Positions 31,372-52,933 of a stretch of DNA of 52,936 nt are shown here, piece after piece. The stretch lies in sequence record OM313461, one strand, 5' to 3'. Under the pieces are notes generated by a model. The model saw nothing but the letters and a program-made list of their open reading frames with translations, ran no database searches and was not told the DNA's origin. The position numbers and the translations under genes were made by a program. The DNA comes from Escherichia phage vB_EcoM_PiR. Numbering within the stretch: the stretch's first letter is position 1; each line of letters begins with the position of its first letter.

Positions 31372-31397
31372 TGTATCTCTCCTCTAAAAGATAACTT

Positions 31398-31426
31398 ATT
31401 ATACCACATCACTCTCTAGTGGTAAA
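31398..31426 (-). promoter_or_regulatory. sigma70-like promoter TTTACC-N17-TATAAT (minus strand)
   Basis: reverse complement of 31421-31426 is TTTACC and of 31398-31403 is TATAAT, 17-bp spacer. Confidence 0.55.
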
Positions 31427-31445
31427 GCACTTTTTATGCTTCGGG

Positions 31446-31477
31446 TAAAAATAAAAAGGACCAGCGTTAACTGGTCC
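31446..31477 (-). terminator. rho-independent terminator
   Basis: stem GGACCAG/CTGGTCC (31458-31464/31471-31477), 6-nt loop; on minus strand followed by UUUUUAUUUUU. Confidence 0.7.
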
Positions 31478-31739
31478 TTTTGGCAGGGTGGCGTAAGGAG
31501 ATACAAGGAATCGCAGTTATGCAACCAGGCAGCGCATATGAGATTGGCTAAAGGACTGACCGACTTAATCCCCGCGACGAGTCGAAAGGAGGTACCATCA
31601 AGTAGCCAATCACATATGCGTTACTTGCTGTGTGCTCTTACCACAGAAAGTATATAGCGTTACACTTATCACACAGTTGTAGTGGCAAAAGCACACAGCA
31701 AGTACAACCTTAGTTGTGGTGTCTTAGCACCTGAGTTAT

Positions 31740-31748
31740 TGTGGATAA
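31740..31748 (-). promoter_or_regulatory. perfect DnaA box TTATCCACA
   Basis: reverse complement of 31740-31748 is TTATCCACA; lies in 565-bp non-coding region between 12-bp inverted repeats TAGTTGTGGTGT (31711-31722 / 31784-31795). Confidence 0.5.
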
Positions 31749-32047
31749 CCTGCACCCGACGGGTGTCAAAAAGATACGCCAAAACACCACAACTAAAATT
31801 GTGACCGCCGTCTACACCAGGCGCCTGGGGTCAAGGTAGCGAGCCAATACCCTTTTCAGCGTCGGAGGAATCGAACCTCACACATCACGGCTTTTACCAA
31901 ATCTCGGTCAGCGAGCAGAATTGAACTGCATTCACTGGACACCCTCACTGTTTCAACACACCAGGCTTAATTGATTGTTGATAAGAAGAGAGATGTAAGG
32001 ATGTCCATTGAATGCACCTCCGTAGAGGTGCGTTCAGATCAGCGCTA

Positions 32048-41610: not shown

Positions 41611-41943
41611 ATGATAAAGCCAAAGCTGTTGCGGCATATTCGCAACGGTATTAAGCTACTCGCCGAAGGCAATGAATATGCCTGCAAGCAACGCGGTATT
41701 ACAAAAGTCGGCCTGTTCAATAAAGAGTTACCGACTCGCTACTTTACCAAATCACCACTAACACTCGTACCTGCAGCGGAGTATTATAAAGACCCCGAAG
41801 CAGCTCGGGCTAAAATCAAGGAAGGTCTTGACCGACTTGTAGAGGAAGGCTATTTGACAGTACGTCAACACACTGAATCATCTTATTACTACAAGCCAAC
41901 TTCTAAGGTAACCAGCAATGACAATGACGAGTCAGCCGAGTGA
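41611..41943 (+). CDS. hypothetical protein
   Basis: 110 aa, strong SD; first gene of primase operon. Confidence 0.55.
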   Translation: MIKPKLLRHIRNGIKLLAEGNEYACKQRGITKVGLFNKELPTRYFTKSPLTLVPAAEYYKDPEAARAKIKEGLDRLVEEGYLTVRQHTESSYYYKPTSKVTSNDNDESAE

Positions 41944-44452
41944 TATTCTCGGTCTGAAATACTTTAAGCCAGAAGGGATTCCCCAAGTCTTCAAAGATAT
42001 GAAGCGCTGGGCTATCTTTGAGCTGACGTACGAAGACGAGACTCTCGAAGTTCAATCCAAACCTAAGAAACCTGCAAGAGCGCCATCAGGCCGTTCCTTC
42101 AGCACAACTGTGCCTGAAGAGTGGATGACTTTCGACGACGCCCTGTCACGTTGTATTCGCAATCGTGAAATGAAGATTAAAGCTGTACAGGGGAATATCA
42201 CCTTTGTGCCGGCTTTGGTTGTTCCTCGCCAGTGGTACTTTGTTGACCTGGACAACCATGAAGATAACCCAGACATTGAAGCTACCCACAAAGCGATAAT
42301 TGAAGGGACTCGTGGTGCTTATGCCGAGACGTCAATCTCTGGCAAAGGGCAACACATTGCAATCCCTTTACCCTGGACTGCAGCAACATCTAAAGAGAAA
42401 GACGAACAACTGGACATCAAAATCCAGAAGGCTGAGATGTTCCTGGTAATGACAGGCAATGTATTGAGTGAGTTCAATGCTAATCCTGTTTCAGCCCGTG
42501 AATGGCATGCAGCAATTGAGAAGTTCTTTCTTGAATCAAGCGCACCTGATATTGATGTTGAGTTTGAGCAAGACGAAGACCGTGGCGAAGAGTATGACAA
42601 AGAGCTGTACGAACAGCTAGCCGACAATACTCGCTGGGCGCTTGAGCACTATCTTAGCGACTACGCACCAGACGGTGTTGGTGTGAGTAATGACGGTTCT
42701 GAACGTTTAAGCCGTATCTTAAAAGACTTGCTTCGTGTAACCCGTAACTATGAAGTTACACAACGCATCTTCATGGCCAGCAAAGCTGCAGCATACGAAG
42801 GTCGTCGTGCAAGTCGACATAGTTTGTCTGTTGACAAGTACCATCAGTGGTTCAGTCGTGTTGGTAAGACTGTGCTGAAAGAGATGCAACGTGATGGCTT
42901 ATTCGTCAAGACCAAGTTTGCTCTTGACATCAACAAAGAGTTAACCAAGAATTCTGGGGTGTCACTGGCTGAGAACGTTGAGTTCAAAGTCAACGACGAT
43001 ATTCTGCCATCTGACGTATTTGTCAGAACGGCCCCGTCCGGGTTTAAACGGCTTATTGCTGAGATACAGGATAACATATCTCCGGCTAACAGGGTTAACG
43101 ACTATGCAATTGGCACAGCTCTTAACATCCTGAGCAACTGCGCCGGTCGTAAGTATGTTTGTCCAGTAGGCGGTCATGCTAACTTCCTGGTAACCAACAT
43201 CATTCTTGTGGGTGGTTCATCAATCGGTAAATCGTTGTATACCGAGATGTTCCCACAAATCCAGGCAAGTTTACCTGACACATCGCCTATCAGCCTTAAT
43301 CGGATTCCAAGGGAACAGACTTTTGCAACCAGGACGTTCGCTGAACTGATGGCTAACCCGTCATACCATTCAGTCCAGTTGTTCTACCCTGAATTTGGTC
43401 TGGCTTTAGGTTCTGGCTTACGCATGAATCCTAACAACCCTGACAACTTTCAGAAAGCTCTGATGGACGCTTCAACCAAGCGTAAGGTTGGCGGTATACT
43501 GACAGGTATCAAACGTGCTAATGCTGACAATGATGTCAAGACAGTAAGCGAACCATGCTACTCTATCCTGGGGGACTCAACTCAAGAGCTTATCCTTGAC
43601 AACACCCGGAAGCAAGACTTCTCAAGTGGCTTTTTGCCCCGCTTCCTGTTCATCCCGAACTATGAGCGAGCGGAGTTTGCCAAACCTGAGAAGGTAGGAC
43701 GTCGCCAGCAGATTCGCCGTACTCAATTCTCCAAAGAGCTGATTGAGAAACTGGAAGCAATCGCTTATGTGAATGCTATCCCGCCTAACGGTAAACTAAG
43801 GCACGACCCGATTCCTATTTACGACGAATCGGATGATGATGACTTCCTGTACGAATACCAGTGCAATATTAATGATATGCGCCAGTATTACAGGGATAAC
43901 GAAGTAGCATCTGCCTTTGTGGGCCGAATGGGCGAGTATGTATTCAATATAGCAGCACTGATTGGACTACTCGATAACTGGGATGCTCCTGTTATGACCA
44001 GGGACAACATCGAATGGGCTTACAAATATGTTCTTCGTTGTATAACCGCCTGGGTCAATAACACAAGCAGGATAGTCGCACCACCAACTACCAACGCCGA
44101 AGTAGTGGACGGCTTCCTAAAAGTCTACAGGGACATTTTGGCCCTTTACACCAAAAGAGGATGGTCTGGCATTGTCAAGCATTATCCCGAAGGTGTTGTA
44201 AGAAGTATCCGGGAAGAACACCTCCAGATGAATGGTTTAAGCATATATGCTATTCGTCAGTCTTTGAGCTGGTTTAAATCGAATTACGGTTTTAACATCA
44301 CAGCTAATAACAAAGTCATTGACGGTATGCTCCAGGATATGATTGACCAGGACTATTTAGCAGTACAAGTATATAAGCCCACAAGAGGCCGATCTGCTAA
44401 CATTTACTGCCTGACGGAGCGAGGATATGACACTGCTAAGAAGTTAAAATAA
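41918..44452 (+). CDS. DNA primase (primase-polymerase-type) fused to SF3/D5-like helicase
   Basis: N-terminal WYFVDLDNHED acidic motif (DxD-type); central Walker A VGGSSIGKS; 844 aa. Confidence 0.6.
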   Translation: MTMTSQPSDILGLKYFKPEGIPQVFKDMKRWAIFELTYEDETLEVQSKPKKPARAPSGRSFSTTVPEEWMTFDDALSRCIRNREMKIKAVQGNITFVPALVVPRQWYFVDLDNHEDNPDIEATHKAIIEGTRGAYAETSISGKGQHIAIPLPWTAATSKEKDEQLDIKIQKAEMFLVMTGNVLSEFNANPVSAREWHAAIEKFFLESSAPDIDVEFEQDEDRGEEYDKELYEQLADNTRWALEHYLSDYAPDGVGVSNDGSERLSRILKDLLRVTRNYEVTQRIFMASKAAAYEGRRASRHSLSVDKYHQWFSRVGKTVLKEMQRDGLFVKTKFALDINKELTKNSGVSLAENVEFKVNDDILPSDVFVRTAPSGFKRLIAEIQDNISPANRVNDYAIGTALNILSNCAGRKYVCPVGGHANFLVTNIILVGGSSIGKSLYTEMFPQIQASLPDTSPISLNRIPREQTFATRTFAELMANPSYHSVQLFYPEFGLALGSGLRMNPNNPDNFQKALMDASTKRKVGGILTGIKRANADNDVKTVSEPCYSILGDSTQELILDNTRKQDFSSGFLPRFLFIPNYERAEFAKPEKVGRRQQIRRTQFSKELIEKLEAIAYVNAIPPNGKLRHDPIPIYDESDDDDFLYEYQCNINDMRQYYRDNEVASAFVGRMGEYVFNIAALIGLLDNWDAPVMTRDNIEWAYKYVLRCITAWVNNTSRIVAPPTTNAEVVDGFLKVYRDILALYTKRGWSGIVKHYPEGVVRSIREEHLQMNGLSIYAIRQSLSWFKSNYGFNITANNKVIDGMLQDMIDQDYLAVQVYKPTRGRSANIYCLTERGYDTAKKLK

Positions 44453-44463
44453 GTAAGTAAATC

Positions 44464-44505
44464 AAGGGCTTGGGTAATTGTAAAAATCCTAAGCCCTTAT
44501 TTTTT
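44464..44505 (+). terminator. rho-independent terminator
   Basis: 11-bp stem AAGGGCTTGGG/CCTAAGCCCTT (one G-U), 13-nt loop, then ATTTTTT. Confidence 0.65.
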
Positions 44506-44619
44506 AAGCTTATTTTACAAACTGATTAATATTTAAACTATAATTAAATATATGGGCTCTAAGAGTATGATTTTATTACTCTTTTACAAATCATAATATA
44601 TGAGCTCCTTATAAAAGAT

Positions 44620-44835
44620 TAAGGGGGTAAAAAAGGGGGATACAAGAACCGGATAAAGGGGGTATATATTTATTTATTATTATTATTATTATTATATATT
44701 ATTAATTATATTAGAAGTAATAAAAACAGCTACTTAGAGGCGTCTATATGTATGATCCGGTTTATCTCTTTATTAATATCAGAACCGGATGAAAAAAATT
44801 TACGCTGGTGAAAAAAATAAAAAAGCCGGATTGAT
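44620..44835. repeat. AT-rich iteron cluster (putative replication origin)
   Basis: three AAGGGGG(T/A) copies (44620-44665), ACCGGAT-type motif four times in both orientations (44647, 44753, 44782, 44825), (ATT)n microsatellite 44671-44695. Confidence 0.5.
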
Positions 44836-44852
44836 AAATAAATCTGTAGACG

Positions 44853-44881
44853 TTTACACTGTAAAAAAGATGTGCTACAAT
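44853..44881 (+). promoter_or_regulatory. sigma70-like promoter TTTACA-N17-TACAAT with extended -10 TG
   Basis: -35 44853-44858, TGCTACAAT at 44873-44881. Confidence 0.6.
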
Positions 44882-44935
44882 ATTTATCAATGTTGCTGAT
44901 TACCAAAACTTTGAATTGTATACGAGGCTGAATAA

Positions 44936-45367
44936 ATGGTTAATATAAGACAGAAAGGACAGAACTTTGAGCGTAAAATGGCTAAGAAGTTTAATAGCTC
45001 GTTCGGATTAACTGTTGAGCGCAATCTTCAACAGTCTATTAATGGCGGGGATGACTTGTTGGGTGTGCCGTTTTTCAGCGTTGAACTGAAGAAGCACAAG
45101 ACCAAGTCTATCGGAACATGGTGGAGACAGTGTGCGGCATCGGCAAAGGCTCAGAACAAGATGCCAGTGCTTATATACGAACTACCAAGAAAACAGCCTA
45201 CCGTGGTGATGAATAAGGCTGATGTGATTGACTGTTTTCCAAGTGGCACGACTTTTAACGAGGCATCGAACCGCCTCTTTGTGGGTTTAGTAGAATTAAC
45301 ATGGGAACAATTTTGCCGGGTCTACAACTATTACGTTGCGCCCGGCACTCAATATCACGTCAATTAA
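44936..45367 (+). CDS. hypothetical protein, possibly a small nuclease/resolvase-like protein
   Basis: 143 aa basic protein with GAGG SD; function guess is weak. Confidence 0.5.
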   Translation: MVNIRQKGQNFERKMAKKFNSSFGLTVERNLQQSINGGDDLLGVPFFSVELKKHKTKSIGTWWRQCAASAKAQNKMPVLIYELPRKQPTVVMNKADVIDCFPSGTTFNEASNRLFVGLVELTWEQFCRVYNYYVAPGTQYHVN

Positions 45368-45549
45368 TCTTGTTTCAGCTCGTCACAAATGACATGCTGA
45401 TTTTTGGCAGGGATAATACCAAGATTTAGTAAGGTGTATGGACTATCGGCGACACATTGTTCAACGGTAGTCCATTCAGGTTTGGATTCAACAATTTTGT
45501 AACTACAATCATGAGTAGCCACACATGTTGCCAGGATTAAGCCAATCAC
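45364..45549 (-). CDS. small protein with hydrophobic N-terminus (GTG start)
   Basis: GTG 45549 preceded by AAGGTGA and overlapping upstream TGA (GTGA). Confidence 0.45.
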   Translation of the reverse strand: MIGLILATCVATHDCSYKIVESKPEWTTVEQCVADSPYTLLNLGIIPAKNQHVICDELKQD

Positions 45550-45686
45550 AAGTAATCACCTTCAACCAGGAACTCAAACAATTGGTTGTAAACGTTGCAA
45601 CCTTTAGCGAAAGAGCTTTCAGCAGGTTTACCATCGCGGACGATCATCATATACTCACCGCCATGGATGTCCACCCAGTATTGCAT
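45546..45686 (-). CDS. small ORF (46 aa), not in track
   Basis: ATG 45686 just after AGGTGG; stop overlaps GTG start of next gene; fills gap in tightly packed early operon. Confidence 0.35.
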   Translation of the reverse strand: MQYWVDIHGGEYMMIVRDGKPAESSFAKGCNVYNQLFEFLVEGDYL

Positions 45687-45724
45687 GCCACCTTTGACCG
45701 GATTACGTTGTAAGAATTTAAACA

Positions 45725-45970
45725 TTATTTGCTCCTGATTCCAAGTTTATTCAATAGCCACACTGTCATGTCAACCCAGGTTAACGGTACAGTTTTCGGG
45801 GGTTGATAATCCCAGCAGCTTGCAGTTCTTTGTATTTCTGCTTGGCGCCGCTCCGCTTCGCGTAATACCGCATCGTCAGAAGTGCCGGCAGAAAAAAGAT
45901 CGGTAACACCAGATAAATCGCGTTGATTAACACGTCGAGCAATGTCATATAAATCTTCCTTAGAAAGCAT
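45725..45970 (-). CDS. hypothetical protein
   Basis: 81-aa ORF with ATG start. Confidence 0.5.
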   Translation of the reverse strand: MLSKEDLYDIARRVNQRDLSGVTDLFSAGTSDDAVLREAERRQAEIQRTASCWDYQPPKTVPLTWVDMTVWLLNKLGIRSK

Positions 45971-46085
45971 AAGTTAATACCATAATAATTACCAGAAAAA
46001 CCGCTACCAGTTTACTCATGTACCGGCCTTCAGCATATGCAGGATTCACAACAGAATACTCAACAACATGTTTACGGCGGACCAT
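45960..46085 (-). CDS. small hydrophobic peptide ORF (41 aa), not in track
   Basis: ATG 46085 preceded by GGAGG; C-terminal LVAVFLVIIMVLTYAF transmembrane-like segment. Confidence 0.35.
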   Translation of the reverse strand: MVRRKHVVEYSVVNPAYAEGRYMSKLVAVFLVIIMVLTYAF

Positions 46086-46197
46086 AAGGCCTCCACTTGT
46101 GGGTTAATTCAAGCATGAGGACTTTCATCAAATCCTCAGGATTGAATTAATTACCAGCTTTTAATCAAGCCCTGTCAGCGCCAGGACTTGAAAAAGA

Positions 46198-46398
46198 TCA
46201 CTCAATCATTATCTGTACTACTATTATACACTCTTTATTGAAGCGGGTAAACACCTTTCCTCCATTTGTGCGTTTAGCCCCAGATTTTAGAGCTGACTGG
46301 CACCAGACATTCCATTCCTCAACTGTCAAGAATTTTTGCTCAGCTTTGGGTGGTAGTCCATTGGCAAGGTCTACCGTAGTAAATTTGACTAGTGGCAT
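46198..46398 (-). CDS. hypothetical protein
   Basis: TAATG overlap with upstream gene. Confidence 0.5.
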   Translation of the reverse strand: MPLVKFTTVDLANGLPPKAEQKFLTVEEWNVWCQSALKSGAKRTNGGKVFTRFNKECIIVVQIMIE

Positions 46399-46787
46399 TA
46401 CTTGACCTCAAATTTTGACTCGTCATATTCCGGATCAGTCACGTCCCGGGTAGCACAATTTTTGATTGCCTCCCAGTAACGTTGGGCATCATCGCCATCG
46501 ACATAAACTGTCCAGTGGCCGTAACCACCTTCAAATCTGTCCCAGGCTTGTTCCCAGACTTTGCCATCTTCCAGCTTGTACCAAGTTGGACGACTGTCAA
46601 ACTCGCGGATTGGATGGTACCCCAATAAAGGATTCATGATGTCAATAATGTCTGCCCTGCCAATCTCCTGGTTTTCCCACAAGATTGTCATGAATTGCTC
46701 AAACTTAAAAGCGTTTGGCAGAACTTTGATGACTTCACCATCACAATATACGGTATAGGTGCCATCTTCGCATTTTGCACTGTACAT
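46398..46787 (-). CDS. hypothetical early protein
   Basis: start re-assigned to ATG 46787 with AGGAGAGAGAAAC spacer. Confidence 0.55.
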   Translation of the reverse strand: MYSAKCEDGTYTVYCDGEVIKVLPNAFKFEQFMTILWENQEIGRADIIDIMNPLLGYHPIREFDSRPTWYKLEDGKVWEQAWDRFEGGYGHWTVYVDGDDAQRYWEAIKNCATRDVTDPEYDESKFEVK

Positions 46788-46855
46788 GTTTCTCTCTCCT
46801 ATTGATATAATTTCAATCATGAACTATCACAACTTTGGATAGTTCATTGTTGAAA

Positions 46856-47029
46856 TTATACTAACTTTGTTACAATCTGAATTGTCAGCCGGAAGTCTTC
46901 CATCAAGTTATCAAACTCTTTGGAACCACCAACCGCATCAGCTATTTGATCTTTCACAATTTGGGCATTTGATTCCAGTAATTCAATCAGGTGCGCCAAT
47001 TCGTCTTCAGTCAATTTCAGGTCTTTCAT
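46856..47029 (-). CDS. small early protein, paralog family member 1
   Basis: ATG 47029 (GGTGGA SD, ATGA overlap); N-terminus MKDLKLTEDELAHLIELLE resembles 47289-47447 and 48144-48317. Confidence 0.55.
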   Translation of the reverse strand: MKDLKLTEDELAHLIELLESNAQIVKDQIADAVGGSKEFDNLMEDFRLTIQIVTKLV

Positions 47030-47283
47030 AATGTATCCACCCAAGCCATAACTTTTGCCAGTCTTACAACGTCTTCATGGTCCCGCTCGCCATCAGAAAA
47101 TTCGCTGGCGATGATACCCATAATTGACGCCAGATTCATGTTGATGATGTAGGCGTGTTGGCGCACTTCATCAATTCCTGAATCTATCACCAGTTCCGCA
47201 AATTCCTGCGAACCTTCATCCCATTCAGCCCAATACTGCTCGGCATAAAAGTCCAGTTCTTTTTTCATCTCAATGTCAGTCAT
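47026..47283 (-). CDS. small highly acidic protein
   Basis: GAGGAG SD; strongly acidic composition. Confidence 0.55.
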   Translation of the reverse strand: MTDIEMKKELDFYAEQYWAEWDEGSQEFAELVIDSGIDEVRQHAYIINMNLASIMGIIASEFSDGERDHEDVVRLAKVMAWVDTL

Positions 47284-47288
47284 TTTGA

Positions 47289-47447
47289 TTACTCCTCAGA
47301 ACTTGAAAATTTGTCATCAATGGACTCAACAATATAATCAAGAGTTGAAGTGTGAGAACTATCAGAAAAAGTGCCCATCTTCTCCAGCTCAATCATCATA
47401 TCCCGTAAAGCCATTGCCTGGTCTTTGGTCAGTTTAATTTTAAGCAT
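47289..47447 (-). CDS. small early protein, paralog family member 2
   Basis: ATG 47447 after CAGGAGAGAAAC; N-terminus MLKIKLTKDQAMALRDMMIELE. Confidence 0.55.
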   Translation of the reverse strand: MLKIKLTKDQAMALRDMMIELEKMGTFSDSSHTSTLDYIVESIDDKFSSSEE

Positions 47448-47511
47448 GTTTCTCTCCTGTTGATTGTGAATAATTTCAATTGATGGCACTACTTGAGTGC
47501 CATCTCAAAAA

Positions 47512-48048
47512 TTACTCTTCAGTTTCTTGGGTTTCAGGTTTTTGACCAGTTACTGACTTGCCATCAGTCACTTTACCAGATTTTACATCATTCCGGTAGT
47601 ATGACATATATGACTGGATAACTCTTTTGGCTTTGATGTCATCCGCCTCCATCCCACAGGCTTTCATGGCATCAACTAGGGCCAGTTTGGAATCTTCTTT
47701 ATCCATCAGGTTGTAATCTTTGAACACCAGATAACAAGTATCTTTTGTTGATGGACCAGATGACTTCCGGGCCCCACCATTGGAAGATCTTGATGCCACA
47801 ACTTTGACCTCTTCAACTTCCAGTTGGTTCAGTTCATCAAACAATGCCTTGACCAACACTTCTTTGGAGTCCTTGACACTTACAGTACTTTCATCATTAA
47901 GGGACTTAATCATCTTAATGATCTGGTTGTTGGCAAAGTACTGAAGACTATCCATCTGCACTACAATAGTCCCAAGACTTTCAGTAGTCAGACCAGATTT
48001 TACAGACTCAACAGAAAAGGCGGAAGTCAGGTAAACATAGTTAGTCAT
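47512..48048 (-). CDS. hypothetical early protein
   Basis: start re-assigned to ATG 48048 with GAGGA SD. Confidence 0.55.
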   Translation of the reverse strand: MTNYVYLTSAFSVESVKSGLTTESLGTIVVQMDSLQYFANNQIIKMIKSLNDESTVSVKDSKEVLVKALFDELNQLEVEEVKVVASRSSNGGARKSSGPSTKDTCYLVFKDYNLMDKEDSKLALVDAMKACGMEADDIKAKRVIQSYMSYYRNDVKSGKVTDGKSVTGQKPETQETEE

Positions 48049-48143
48049 TGATGTATCCTCATTGATAGAATTTTTGATAAGTGTCAATCCTTGACAAGTA
48101 AGTCCAATCATGAGGACTTTTACCAAGTCCCCATTGTTGGAAA

Positions 48144-48317
48144 TTACTTCAACTTATCCAGAATTGATTGGAGTAACTTGACCCTCACTTCCTGGTCTTT
48201 GACATCCCTTCCACTCTCCCTGTCATATTCCAACAGGTCACTTTCCATAAATAAAGTAGTGTCCAATTGGTCAACCAATAATTCCAGTTCTTCTTGGGAC
48301 AATTCTAAAACTTTCAT
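48144..48317 (-). CDS. small early protein, paralog family member 3
   Basis: ATG 48317 after CAGGAG; N-terminus MKVLELSQEELELLVDQLD. Confidence 0.55.
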   Translation of the reverse strand: MKVLELSQEELELLVDQLDTTLFMESDLLEYDRESGRDVKDQEVRVKLLQSILDKLK

Positions 48318-48321
48318 CTTA

Positions 48322-48468
48322 TTACTCCTGATATTTAATAACTTGGGATTGGATAAAGTCAACACAATCTTCCACATCCATTGACTCAAAGTCTGGAACT
48401 GGACCATTGTTTATATTGACACACCAAAGCCCTTCATTGGTATCATACCAAAGTGTGTAGTTGTCCAT
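48322..48468 (-). CDS. small early protein (first gene of AT-rich block)
   Basis: ATG 48468 after AGAGGTG; track start 48525 is GTG. Confidence 0.5.
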   Translation of the reverse strand: MDNYTLWYDTNEGLWCVNINNGPVPDFESMDVEDCVDFIQSQVIKYQE

Positions 48469-48834
48469 CTTAATAGTCACCTCTTGTACTAGTTTCCAGT
48501 TGTGACTACTGTTACCAATAGTCACTGGTTGAAACTATTACTAGTGTTACTATCAACAAGAAACATGTTACCAGATTGTTAAAGAGCAAAAGGTACCATT
48601 GACATCTACCAGATGTACCTGTTGACTGGTTAAGTACTACCTACCCAAATTAAACCATACTAATACCCTCCAGACCAGTTGACTGGTCACTTGGTCATCA
48701 CATTCAATAAATATATAATAGTCCAATCCCTCTTGATTGTACACCTTATATTTGTAAGTTTATGCAAGTTTTTAGAAATGATAATCACTTGCGATTGAGA
48801 GTGGTTCTCGTATGCTATTGATATAGTTTCGCAT

Positions 48835-49098
48835 GTAATTACTCAACTCAAAATGGTCGGCAGGGGTTATAATCACATAGGGGTGCCACTTAAAGGAGCC
48901 GGCGAAATTATTTATAAAAATATAATTTCAATCTGAAGTATAGACGCTTTGTGTTATAACGGCCGAAGTAGTTCATACGGTAATTGTATCAATCACAATA
49001 GTTACCAGCGTAATCATTTCAATCGAAATAGGTGCGGCGGGGGTAATTTCGCAAGGGTGCTACCCACCAGGAGTCAGCGGAATTTTTTTATTTTTTGG
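48835..49098. repeat. duplicated ~85-bp non-coding element (two full copies plus a partial copy)
   Basis: copy 1 48835-48915 and copy 2 49010-49098 share GTAAT...CAA..AAAT.GGT.CGGC.GGGG...AGGGTGC.AC...AGGAG.C.GCG.AATT-T-run; partial copy at 48979-49006. Confidence 0.5.
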
Positions 49099-49307
49099 TA
49101 TTTTTGCCTTATCAGGACCAATCATCATCAGATTGATACAATAGGAGCTAACCTTTTGCCTAACACAATAATAAGTGAAGCCCCTCTAAAATTTTTTTTT
49201 ATATTTTTCGGAAATTGTGTAGACACTCACTAAAAAGTGGTGTACTTTCTCTCCTCCACGCGCTATCATTAATGTGAATCATCAAACGGCCTCACGGTCT
49301 CCTACTT

Positions 49308-51486: not shown

Positions 51487-52175
51487 GCCCAGTATACAAT
51501 ACCTCAGTCACGCTGTCAGCAACCGTAGGGGACGTCAACAAGACTGTTACTGTGGGTTCAACTAACCCGAACCTGTCAGGCGAAGACCTGCTACGCCTGG
51601 CCAAACGTGCTCTTGAAGATAACGAAGTGACTGGTACTGAAGGCGTTAACATTGAAATTAACGTCGAAGGGTGTCCACACAGCATCAGCATTGCGACTTC
51701 TGGCGATGAAATTGAAAAGTTCAACGACGAGCTGGAATATCGTACCGGTGAGATGTTCAGCAGTGCGCTAAACTGGTACTTGTGCAAGGCTTCAAACTAC
51801 GCTGGCGCTCCTATGTCAGACCGTATGTTAGCTGATATGTCTGCACGTGAAATTGCTAAAGGCTGGGCGCATGTACAGATGCTGCAGGAGCATATCTGCA
51901 AGCTGGAAAGCTGCAATAAAGACGCGTCTGAGCTTATTACTGCCTATAAGCGACAGATTAACGACCTGCAGCAACTGATGGGCAAACGCGCTGAAGAATA
52001 TGAGGCTGAGATTCGTAGTCTTAACGGTACGGCTGTTGCTAACAACCGTGCTTTCAGCGAAGAGCGTAAAGCGCTTATTGCCCAGCGTGACGCTGAAAAA
52101 CGTCGTGCAGACGACCTAGCAAACCGTCTTAATTTTATCCGTAAACACATGGAACACATGGATGGAGTAATCTGA
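51483..52175 (+). CDS. hypothetical protein with C-terminal coiled coil
   Basis: ATG 51483 with AAGGAG SD; track start 51474 is GTG. Confidence 0.5.
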   Translation: MSPVYNTSVTLSATVGDVNKTVTVGSTNPNLSGEDLLRLAKRALEDNEVTGTEGVNIEINVEGCPHSISIATSGDEIEKFNDELEYRTGEMFSSALNWYLCKASNYAGAPMSDRMLADMSAREIAKGWAHVQMLQEHICKLESCNKDASELITAYKRQINDLQQLMGKRAEEYEAEIRSLNGTAVANNRAFSEERKALIAQRDAEKRRADDLANRLNFIRKHMEHMDGVI

Positions 52176-52465
52176 TGGACTTGTTCGATATGGTCGAACA
52201 TCCTGAAGTAAACGGCTTGGCGGAAGCTAAGCCATTTAACTGGGATGAATTCGTAGCAGGCAAACCTGCTGTAACCCACAATGGGCAGATTGCATATTAC
52301 GGAGGCCATAGCGAACATCCGATGTGCACTCACCTGTACAACGCTATCACAACCATAGCCGACGAAAACGTTATTAAATACGGAAAAGATGTAATGCCTT
52401 TTCTTGTAGATGAGCGCGGTTACTTCGAAGGTAAATGGTTCCCGTTTCTGGTAGAAATGGCCTAA
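52175..52465 (+). CDS. hypothetical protein
   Basis: ATGA overlap with upstream stop. Confidence 0.5.
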   Translation: MDLFDMVEHPEVNGLAEAKPFNWDEFVAGKPAVTHNGQIAYYGGHSEHPMCTHLYNAITTIADENVIKYGKDVMPFLVDERGYFEGKWFPFLVEMA

Positions 52466-52581
52466 AAACCGGATAAATATAAAGGCGTCTAAGTTAGTTC
52501 TTCATCTATATAAGCTACTTATTCGCCTTTCTACTGTAGACTTTCTCATCATCTCTCTAGACACTTCATTTTTATATTCTG

Positions 52582-52610
52582 TTTACTTACTTCGCGTAAC
52601 TCGTTATAAT
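52582..52610 (+). promoter_or_regulatory. sigma70-like promoter TTTACT-N17-TATAAT
   Basis: -35 52582-52587, -10 52605-52610; ACCGGAT-type motifs at 52469-52475 and 52617-52623 nearby. Confidence 0.6.
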
Positions 52611-52642
52611 CCCGACTATCCGGATTAACGAGGACGACACCC

Positions 52643-52933
52643 ATGGCAAAACCGAAAAAAACCCGTGAGGCAACAGAAGAACTGTTGGCCACGATGCGAC
52701 GTATCCAGCTGGACCCGTTGGAAGTTATGCAACGGGCTATCATACTTGCTGAACGTGAAGACGACTACAAAGCAATGATGGATGGTGCACTGGGCGTTAT
52801 GCCGTACATGTATCCTAAGCTGAAAGAATCCGTTGTCAAAGCAGACATCGACCAGAACCTGTCTGGTAATGGTGTCAACCTGAACATTACAATAGGCGAC
52901 CAGAAAGTGGTAGATACTACTGGGGAAGAGTAA
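52643..52933 (+). CDS. terminase small subunit (candidate)
   Basis: 96-aa ORF with GAGGA SD whose stop is 3 nt before window end, which would abut the large terminase ATG at position 1 in a circularly permuted genome. Confidence 0.35.
   Translation: MAKPKKTREATEELLATMRRIQLDPLEVMQRAIILAEREDDYKAMMDGALGVMPYMYPKLKESVVKADIDQNLSGNGVNLNITIGDQKVVDTTGEE

Follow-up and report, generated by a model that had tools for sequence, protein, structure and literature searches.

A conserved intergenic region with an origin-like layout at the probable terminal-repeat boundary of Escherichia phage vB_EcoM_PiR

The stretch of DNA analysed here, referred to below as the window, comprises 52,936 nucleotides of Escherichia phage vB_EcoM_PiR (sequence record OM313461). 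A 483-bp spacer at 44453-44935 separates the primase-helicase gene (41918-44452) from the gene of a RusA-like/PDDEXK resolvase (44936-45367). The 844-residue primase-helicase matches PHROG 3022, "DNA primase", and, weakly, Pfam DUF3987. In the parts compared with Escherichia phage JEP7 (MT764207, genus Rosemountvirus), the window has approximately 2.7% substitutions and no indels. Within the spacer it differs from the deposited JEP7 record at three bases, 44647, 44806 and 44809. Both records are collapsed assemblies deposited as circular, and the terminal repeat is annotated in neither. The initial annotation of this locus, made from the sequence alone, described an AT-rich repeat cluster beyond the primase terminator and took it for a candidate origin of replication with iterons. 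The cluster is present, with all the features ascribed to it. These and the other features are as follows.

44460-44472, plus strand: exact match (AATCAAGGGCTTG) to the IHF consensus WATCAANNNNTTR, overlapping the left arm of the terminator, one of three exact matches in the genome.
44464-44505, plus strand: intrinsic terminator of the primase-helicase operon, stem 44464-44474/44488-44498 with a 13-nt loop, then a T-run.
44560-44574, plus strand: IHF-consensus-like box TAAGAGTATGATTTT to the left of the core, with a homologous box in 12 of 12 lineages.
44621-44663, plus strand: three G-boxes (AAGGGGGT/A) starting at 44621, 44633 and 44656, with AACCGGATAAA embedded at 44647-44657.
44663-44713, no strand: pure A+T tract, candidate DNA-unwinding element, 51 bp, 100% A+T, containing (TTA)13.
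44722-44736, minus strand: inverted copy of the box, TAAGTAGCTGTTTTT (plus strand AAAAACAGCTACTTA), directly to the right of the A+T tract.
44755-44762, minus strand: inverted CCGGAT box (ATCCGGTT on the plus strand), weakly conserved in S144, SE4 and fHy-Eco03.
44783-44793, plus strand: AACCGGATGAA box, 13-23 nt to the left of the predicted cut, present as ACCGGAWGAAAAA in S144, SE4, KE25, L019, SOI901 and Sz.
44803-44810, no strand: predicted left boundary of the direct terminal repeat and left genome end, cut between 44806 and 44807, CGCT^GGTG (the caret marks the cut).
44807-49075, no strand: predicted direct terminal repeat of 4269 bp, with both boundaries homologous to those of Sz and fHy-Eco03.
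44825-44833, plus strand: GCCGGATTG box, 19-27 nt to the right of the predicted cut, inside the repeat and preceded by A-tracts.
44853-44881, plus strand: sigma-70 promoter of the resolvase gene, TTTACA, 17-nt spacer, TGcTACAAT.
52467-52477, plus strand: third copy of AACCGGATAAA, upstream of the promoter of the small-terminase/late operon.
52618-52625: a further CCGGAT, over the transcription start of the small-terminase/late operon.

The spacer was aligned in 12 lineages, including Loughboroughvirus (SE4, ZCSE2, S144), KE25-like phages and three lineages with primases 42-45% identical to that of the window, namely vB_SE1_KM (KM), Erwinia phage SOI901 and a metagenomic contig. The order of elements is the same in all of them. 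The terminator is followed by one to four boxes TAAGnnCTTGWTTT, one to three G-runs with an (A)CCGG(A/T) element, and the pure-AT tract. Then come one inverted copy of the box (AAAACAnnnnCTTA), ACCGGAWGAAAAA, the palindrome CGCCGGCG, an A-tract with GYCGGATTG, and the promoter TTTACA-17-TACAAT. This alignment supports the spacer as a conserved cis-acting region with an origin-like layout, retained even at such low identity of the primase. The core of the S144 region is 88% similar to that of Rosemountviruses, which is unusually high, whereas its flanks are divergent. Since this similarity may stem from exchange rather than from selection, conservation was judged on SE4, ZCSE2, KE25, KM, SOI901 and lineage L019.

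The terminator postulated after the primase gene is confirmed. Its hairpin folds at -17.6 kcal/mol (z = -3.3, RNA fold) and precedes a T-run, and the change of AAGGGCTT/AAGCCCTT to AAGGACTT/AAGTCCTT in ZCSE2, KE25 and lineage L031 is compensatory, which supports the stem. A simple terminator scan missed this hairpin because its loop is longer than 8 nt. At the other end of the spacer, the promoter of the resolvase gene scores 10 out of 12 with a TG extension in the promoter scan, is invariant across lineages, and carries a promoter annotation in the records of BP63 and S144. Together with the upstream A-tracts it forms the best conserved stretch of the spacer. No RNA family was found in Rfam, either for the spacer at a permissive threshold or for the whole window at the gathering threshold. 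Several open reading frames were considered and rejected. A 14-codon ORF at 44747-44791 (MYDPVYLFINIRTG) has the same length in S144, but its ATG and frame are lost in SE4. The minus-strand ORFs 44730-44906 and 44762-44890 were treated as spurious, as they span the predicted genome end and are unannotated in well-curated relatives.

The spacer very probably contains the left genome end, at 44806/44807, a position assigned by homology to the termini of three relatives, fHy-Eco03, Sz and AEV23. Phage fHy-Eco03 (MW602648) has 3699-bp direct terminal repeats with 11 genes, determined by PhageTerm and restriction digests (PMC8145870). The repeats annotated in its record start with GGCGCAAAAAG/GGCGCAAAAAGAAAAAAAGCCGGATTG at the homologous GGCG, 113 nt ahead of the first gene. 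The 57,020-bp record of Sz (PP236111) starts with GGCGAAAAAAAT/GGCGAAAAAAATAAAAAAGCCGGATTG, and we confirmed that its two ends are an exact repeat of 4263 bp. For AEV23 (OR810919) a terminal repeat of 3915 bp has been reported (PMC12918118). The AEV23 record ends 7 nt beyond the homologous cut, and its opposite end has host-like DNA attached a few bases at most from this point. All three phages have their left end in the palindrome CGCC^GGCG. The same palindrome is present in most relatives and in the deposited JEP7 record (CGCCGGCG), whereas the window has CGCT^GGTG (CGCTGGTG). In these Rosemountvirus and Loughboroughvirus repeats the left boundary, at the position homologous to that in the window, reads GGCG(A/C)AAAA and is situated about 113-130 nt before the first repeat gene. 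The gene content is also the same, with the resolvase and small early genes.

The right boundary of the repeat aligns to 49075/49076, GGAGTC^AGCGGAATTTTTTT. At both boundaries, CY^RGCGRAA precedes an AT-rich run. Restriction mapping of S144 put an end between the early-gene cluster E and cluster A (the E/A gap), in agreement with the right boundary (PMC7432712). The predicted repeat is present once in this assembly, carries the resolvase gene and a cluster of small early genes, and has the resolvase promoter as its first promoter. The virion DNA would thus be about 57.2 kb long. Another Rosemountvirus, vB_SenM-1, was called a COS packager from PhageTerm alone (PMC7503781), and this call weighed less with us than the three records that agree with one another. 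The breaks in the records of BP63 and swi3 were at first read as possible termini and then discarded. What looks like an end in BP63 is a gap in the assembly, where the microsatellite is missing. The swi3 record has the same first base as that of BP63 and was thus apparently opened to match. A genome end within the spacer, which the initial annotation did not mention, is already known in relatives, and it is by homology that we infer it for this phage.

The initial annotation listed an ACCGGAT-type motif four times in both orientations, and these boxes are indeed found at 44648 (plus), 44755 (minus) and 44784 (plus), with GCCGGAT at 44825 (plus). Two of them, 44784-44790 and 44825-44831, are in direct orientation on either side of the predicted cut, 16-18 bp from it. 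As two of the four boxes bracket the cut, a part of the proposed iterons would be elements of the genome terminus and, probably, of packaging. The bracketing boxes are kept in most lineages, and AAAAAAGYCGGATTG within the right-hand box is conserved in all of them. However, KM has no left-hand box, which counts against a terminus or pac function.

The longer motif AACCGGATRAA has three copies in the genome (44647, 44783, 52467) against 0.01 expected; with this exception, the k-mers common to the spacer and the rest of the genome are at the chance level. The recurrence of ACCGGAT near the promoter at 52582, which had been observed earlier, holds in relatives as well, as both AAAACCGGATAAA near 52.5 kb and CCGGA at the transcription start are retained in ZCSE2 and in the distant KM. 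The suggestion that one DNA-binding protein serves both sites is in agreement with the conservation of boxes at each of them. However, their geometry favours the genome end and packaging genes over origin iterons. Another repeat in that description, the pair at 44511-44527 and 44581-44600, exists as two copies of TTTTACAAA, both in the spacer (44513, 44582) and the only ones in the genome. It is not conserved: brunost has TTTTACTAA, and the pair is absent from S144, SE4, ZCSE2 and KM. Thus it is probably lineage-specific or due to chance.

The core of the spacer consists of the G-boxes and the A+T tract. As initially described, AAGGGGG(T/A) occurs three times in the cluster. On both strands of the 52.9-kb genome there are exactly three copies of AAGGGGG, all on the plus strand and within 42 nt. 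Since 3.2 copies are expected by chance, it is not their number but the clustering that is non-random (three random same-strand sites within 42 nt, p ~5e-7). The relatives have one to three G-runs at the same place, with three in SE4 and KM and one in ZCSE2 and KE25. A G-quadruplex at the G-boxes was ruled out, as there are only three G-runs; a fourth GGG is found in brunost and is absent from the window.

The (ATT)n microsatellite of the initial annotation is a TTA unit in 13 copies at 44674-44713 (Tandem Repeats Finder), inside the A+T tract. Nearest-neighbour energies place the lowest stability of any 60-bp window in the genome at 44663-44723 (z = 6.7), and the tract is the genome-wide stability minimum at windows of 40, 60, 100 and 200 bp (z = 5.4-6.7). 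In each of the eight relatives' loci tested, it is likewise the homologous tract that has the lowest stability of all 60-bp windows (z = 5.0-5.9). The repeat unit is ATT, ATTT, TA or ATCT depending on the lineage, so it is the composition that is conserved and not the sequence, as expected for an unwinding or a highly flexible element. The core is a good candidate for an unwinding element and lies in the unique arm, 90-190 bp from the cut. The distance from the tract to the cut site is 90-134 bp in the 12 lineages.

One possibility is that the region is purely transcriptional or architectural. The terminator, IHF-type bends, A-tract UP elements and CCGGAT boxes would then control the early resolvase promoter and the late promoter, with the AT microsatellite as tolerated filler or curved DNA. 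Such a role would agree with the strong conservation of the promoter and its A-tracts, with the occurrence of CCGGAT boxes at the late-operon promoter, and with the promoters that the annotators of S144 and AEV23 placed in the spacer. However, the AT tract is located 140-190 bp ahead of the promoter, and its composition persists over deep divergence. The CCGGAT boxes take different positions at the two promoters, about -60/-100 at one and about +4/-147 at the other, and the promoter scan found no promoter aimed into the core. Moreover, a genome end at this exact place would be left unexplained. We therefore regard a purely transcriptional role as improbable.

The spacer box TAAGnnCTTGWTTT is the reverse complement of the IHF consensus WATCAANNNNTTR. 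Exact matches to this consensus are enriched in the spacers of the 12 lineages, 15 against 1.3 expected. The sequence TAAGNNNNTGNTTTT has two perfect copies in the genome, at 44560 (plus) and 44722 (minus), which are inverted and flank the core. The block AAAACAnnnnCTTA at the inverted copy is retained in every aligned lineage. Pairing of 44557-44580 with 44716-44739 was considered as a structure and rejected, as there is no covariation among the lineages between the variable positions of the arms. Single-strand folding found no stem-loop in the core (z = +1.6, worse than shuffled sequence). Since the arms do not co-vary and the core does not fold, the boxes look like putative protein-binding sites rather than a stem.

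Can this layout be that of a replication origin, as initially proposed? In that case the primase-helicase, perhaps with IHF, would bind the G-boxes, the AACCGGAT box or the inverted TAAG...TTTT boxes, melt the AT tract, load itself and prime bidirectional replication, and the genome end would be incidental. A conserved, origin-like layout with the easiest-melting DNA of the genome stands from the proposal. The unwinding element is the strongest in the genome, with its composition rather than its sequence conserved, and there are inverted boxes on both sides of it. The core lies in a non-transcribed gap with a strong terminator on one side and the next promoter on the other, and forks starting from it would run with the transcription of clusters C, A and B. 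The protein has primase and DUF3987 helicase signatures. Its last approximately 80 residues follow the order helix-helix-helix-strand-strand, reminiscent of a winged helix, though in a poor model (pLDDT 47). In this AlphaFold2 model, made for residues 700-844, the mean pLDDT is 46.7, too low for the model to be of use. The C-terminal domain has no sequence match in PDB. A word-based search yields seven close homologues of the primase-helicase, and an exhaustive search with the C-terminal 145 residues yields three or four.

The location directly 3' of the primase-helicase gene is similar to that of the proposed origin of pRN1 (PMC4234260). The replication protein of pRN1 has a primase of the archaeo-eukaryotic type as well as a superfamily 3 helicase and a winged helix, and the proposed origin, immediately 3' of its gene, is a stem-loop of about 100 nt required for replication; in origins of the P4 alpha type, iterons are bound by the winged helix (PMC4234260). 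In pRN1, as in the window, the candidate origin immediately follows the gene of a multifunctional primase-helicase. However, the window has no large stem-loop of the pRN1 type, and the terminator is the sole strong hairpin of the spacer.

Other properties of the spacer also speak against an origin or are neutral to it. Iteron-type origins have at least three direct repeats of about 17-22 bp in helical phase and an adjacent AT-rich unwinding element. The 51-bp tract could serve as the latter. However, the repeats here are 7-11 bp long and irregularly spaced, and their number varies from one to three by lineage. The G-box starts are 12 and 23 nt apart, and ZCSE2 and KE25 have a single G-box. Thus they are not iterons of the classical kind. 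DnaA boxes (TTWTNCACA) are not enriched: the spacer has only four one-mismatch matches, two of which are the TTTTACAAA pair, and genome-wide there are 94 matches against 122 expected. Cumulative GC skew, which had been suggested as a check, follows the direction of transcription, with the maximum at 26 kb, the minimum near 50 kb and only a local bump at the spacer, which is not a global extremum. For a transcription-activated origin of the T7 or T4 type, where a promoter would fire into an AT-rich element downstream of it, the promoter scan found no sigma-70-like site upstream of the AT tract and facing it; the candidate hexamer pairs seen there by direct reading of the sequence have 19-21-nt spacers. 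Finally, half of the proposed iterons bracket the genome end, which lies in the spacer itself. With GC skew, DnaA boxes, stem-loop and Rfam all silent, an origin alone is possible but rather doubtful.

There is also a precedent for origin-like architecture with a different function. In phage T5, the injection stop signal is formed by an untranslated part of the terminal repeat that is rich in repeats and resembles an origin (bioRxiv 10.1101/866236), and thus such architecture need not mean an origin. The window spacer likewise is repeat-rich, origin-like, non-coding and tied to a long repeat with early genes (pre-early ones in T5). If it were an injection-stop or end-protection element of this kind, the repeat with its small early genes would enter first, and the repeat-rich inner border would arrest entry or anchor the DNA until the early proteins are made. 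The small early genes of the repeat, at least one of which (gp05) is toxic to the host, would suit such a scheme, as would the resemblance to the T5 pre-early region and the position of the core at the inner border of the right repeat copy. However, T5 has ordered DnaA boxes, and arrays of this type were not found in the spacer. The T5 signal is situated within its repeat and the core just outside the one predicted here, and two-step injection has not been reported for these phages. We consider this role very unlikely.

The explanation that we favour, with moderate confidence, is that the spacer is a terminal-repeat junction, in which a terminus or pac module adjoins an unwinding core where DNA synthesis probably starts. 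It would join the unique right arm to the long direct terminal repeat and would consist of four modules. The first is the intrinsic terminator of the primase-helicase operon. The second would be a nucleoprotein or unwinding core, in which the inverted IHF-consensus-like boxes surround the three G-boxes and the pure A+T tract. The third would be the cut site CGCY^GGYG, bracketed by direct CCGGAT boxes and A-tracts. The fourth is the early sigma-70 promoter, predicted to be the first feature inside the repeat.

In this junction, the terminase or a partner protein would most likely recognise concatemers and then cut or nick them at CGCY^GGYG. A phage protein binding CCGGAT would mark the left repeat boundary. 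The small terminase, the 96-residue product of 52643-52933, is our best guess for it, as a conserved copy of the box is also present at its own promoter. The host IHF or a phage protein may bend the flanking DNA. The AT tract would then open and DNA synthesis would start, either for terminal-repeat copying in concatemer processing, similar to T7, or as the genome origin, or both. What the sequences show are the motifs, their conservation and, by homology with ends determined in relatives, the position of the terminus; all the protein-DNA contacts, the chemistry of cutting and any initiation of DNA synthesis are what we infer. That the core takes part in initiating DNA synthesis of some kind seems plausible to us, the arguments for and against it being about balanced.

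A role in packaging or terminus processing is at least as likely as that of an origin, and the two are compatible. The nearly constant distance of the core from the cut, noted above for all 12 lineages, favours packaging or end processing. On the other hand, the core is on the unique side of the cut, whereas sites of the lambda cosB type flank the packaged end. Furthermore, a blunt or symmetric cut in a palindrome would need no 50-bp melting element, and in this respect an origin would fit better.

Two known systems may serve for comparison. In phage T7, the terminal repeat of the concatemer junction reportedly lies between arrays of short repeats, with the replication promoters phiOL and phiOR and with pac elements in the unique right arm. 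By analogy, the short repeated motifs and the origin-like AT-rich element in unique DNA beside the terminal repeat would correspond to those of the window, and in both phages the terminal repeat would have to be duplicated during packaging. However, the repeat of T7 is 160 bp long and the one predicted here 4.3 kb, the window has neither a phage RNA polymerase nor a detectable promoter into the AT tract, and the motifs are unrelated. The cosB site of phage lambda has three R sites for the small terminase and the IHF site I1 and lies beside cosN. The three short direct repeats and the IHF-consensus sites at about 50-250 bp from the cut could be counterparts of those in the window, where the IHF sites, enriched as they are, are matches to the consensus. 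However, the ends predicted here are repeat boundaries and not cohesive ends, the core is on the non-packaged side of the cut, and cosB has no counterpart of the 51-bp A+T tract.

It may even be that replication and packaging are coupled at the junction, with one ori-pac module providing a mechanistic link between genome replication, duplication of the repeat and the choice of the packaging start, although this seems to us rather unlikely. The AT tract, bent by IHF and situated 90-190 bp from the repeat boundary, would then be opened by a virion-associated primase-helicase or else by an R-loop, which a G-rich transcript would form over the G-boxes in the manner of ColE1 or the mitochondrial conserved sequence blocks. 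In either case, DNA synthesis begun at the AT tract would copy the 4.3-kb terminal repeat. If true, this would be a new way of regenerating long exact terminal repeats.

Outside T7 and T5, it is poorly understood how multi-kilobase exact terminal repeats are regenerated and where replication starts. In the papers on Rosemountvirus and Loughboroughvirus phages that we consulted, we found no description of the conserved core and of the motifs around the boundary. The spacer offers a compact and deeply conserved set of candidate cis-elements, comprising the cut site, CCGGAT boxes, G-boxes, AT tract and IHF-like boxes, which is directly testable. Most records of Rosemountvirus and Loughboroughvirus, including JEP7, are circular or arbitrarily opened and have no annotated terminal repeat, and several are opened or broken within the spacer region. 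Recognition of the true end would correct the genome maps for this group, which is under development for biocontrol of Salmonella and E. coli.

The window matches the record of Escherichia phage JEP7 (MT764207, genus Rosemountvirus). The two are equal in length and, in the parts compared, differ by approximately 2.7% substitutions with no indels. The substitutions are distributed patchily, and certain stretches have almost none. MT764207 is deposited as a circular molecule, and the terminal repeat is not annotated in it.

The gap at 48469-49307 separates the small early genes from the next gene cluster (cluster A) and holds two direct repeat units of about 45 bp each:

48856-48900, look-alike of the cut site
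49031-49075, putative right boundary of the terminal repeat

In both units a pair of G-runs comes first, then GGAGYC|RGCGRAA, then an AT-rich run. The second unit is inferred to mark where the terminal repeat ends on the right. The first has the appearance of a paralogous cut site that is not in use. The motif GCYGGYGAAA is restricted to two places, namely this first unit and the left boundary of the terminal repeat.

In several related phages, SPLA12, LPSEYT and birk (loci L011, L012 and L013), an additional gene of about 500 bp, annotated as anti-repressor Ant or homing endonuclease, lies directly upstream of the resolvase gene. It is situated inside the repeat, in the region equivalent to window positions ~44850-44935. 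The core (the IHF-like boxes, G-boxes and AT tract of the spacer between the primase-helicase and resolvase genes) and the cut site are undisturbed. The BP63 record (KM366099) is opened within the spacer, where an assembly gap has removed about 60 nt together with the microsatellite they contain. The swi3 record (MT768059) has the same first base as BP63. The AEV23 record (OR810919) has the look of a chimeric assembly: a methyltransferase and an IS5 transposase are fused near the terminus site.

Several promoter-like sites carry the word TAGAC just 5' of the -35 region, e.g. TGTAGACGTTTACA:

44845, TAGAC upstream of the -35
48942, the same
49222, the same
52538, the same
52559, the same

Distant relatives retain it at the resolvase and small-terminase promoters. 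TAGAC may thus far be read as a candidate upstream promoter element specific to the phage.

One open reading frame is absent from the JEP7 annotation and annotated in ZCSE2 (gp74) and KM:

52175-52465, ORF of 96 codons

Its end directly adjoins the conserved downstream AAAACCGGATAAA box.

Within the replication gene cluster there is a stretch of about 680 bp with normal GC content:

31372-32047, minus strand, non-coding

Its transcribed strand has no ORF longer than 45 residues, and Rfam and ARAGORN gave no match. The stretch contains GGTTCGATTCC, resembling the T-arm of tRNA, and an exact DnaA box (31740-31748), and it ends in a clear terminator, after which comes a promoter-like site. This region could be a structured RNA or other cis element, and it would be an alternative origin candidate.

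The fHy-Eco03 annotation lists the homologues of the primase-helicase (41918-44452) and resolvase (44936-45367) as virion-associated by mass spectrometry, and S144 virions likewise yielded two peptides of the primase-helicase homologue. A particle-borne replication protein is unusual, and the presence of the primase-helicase in the virion might be related to binding near the genome end.
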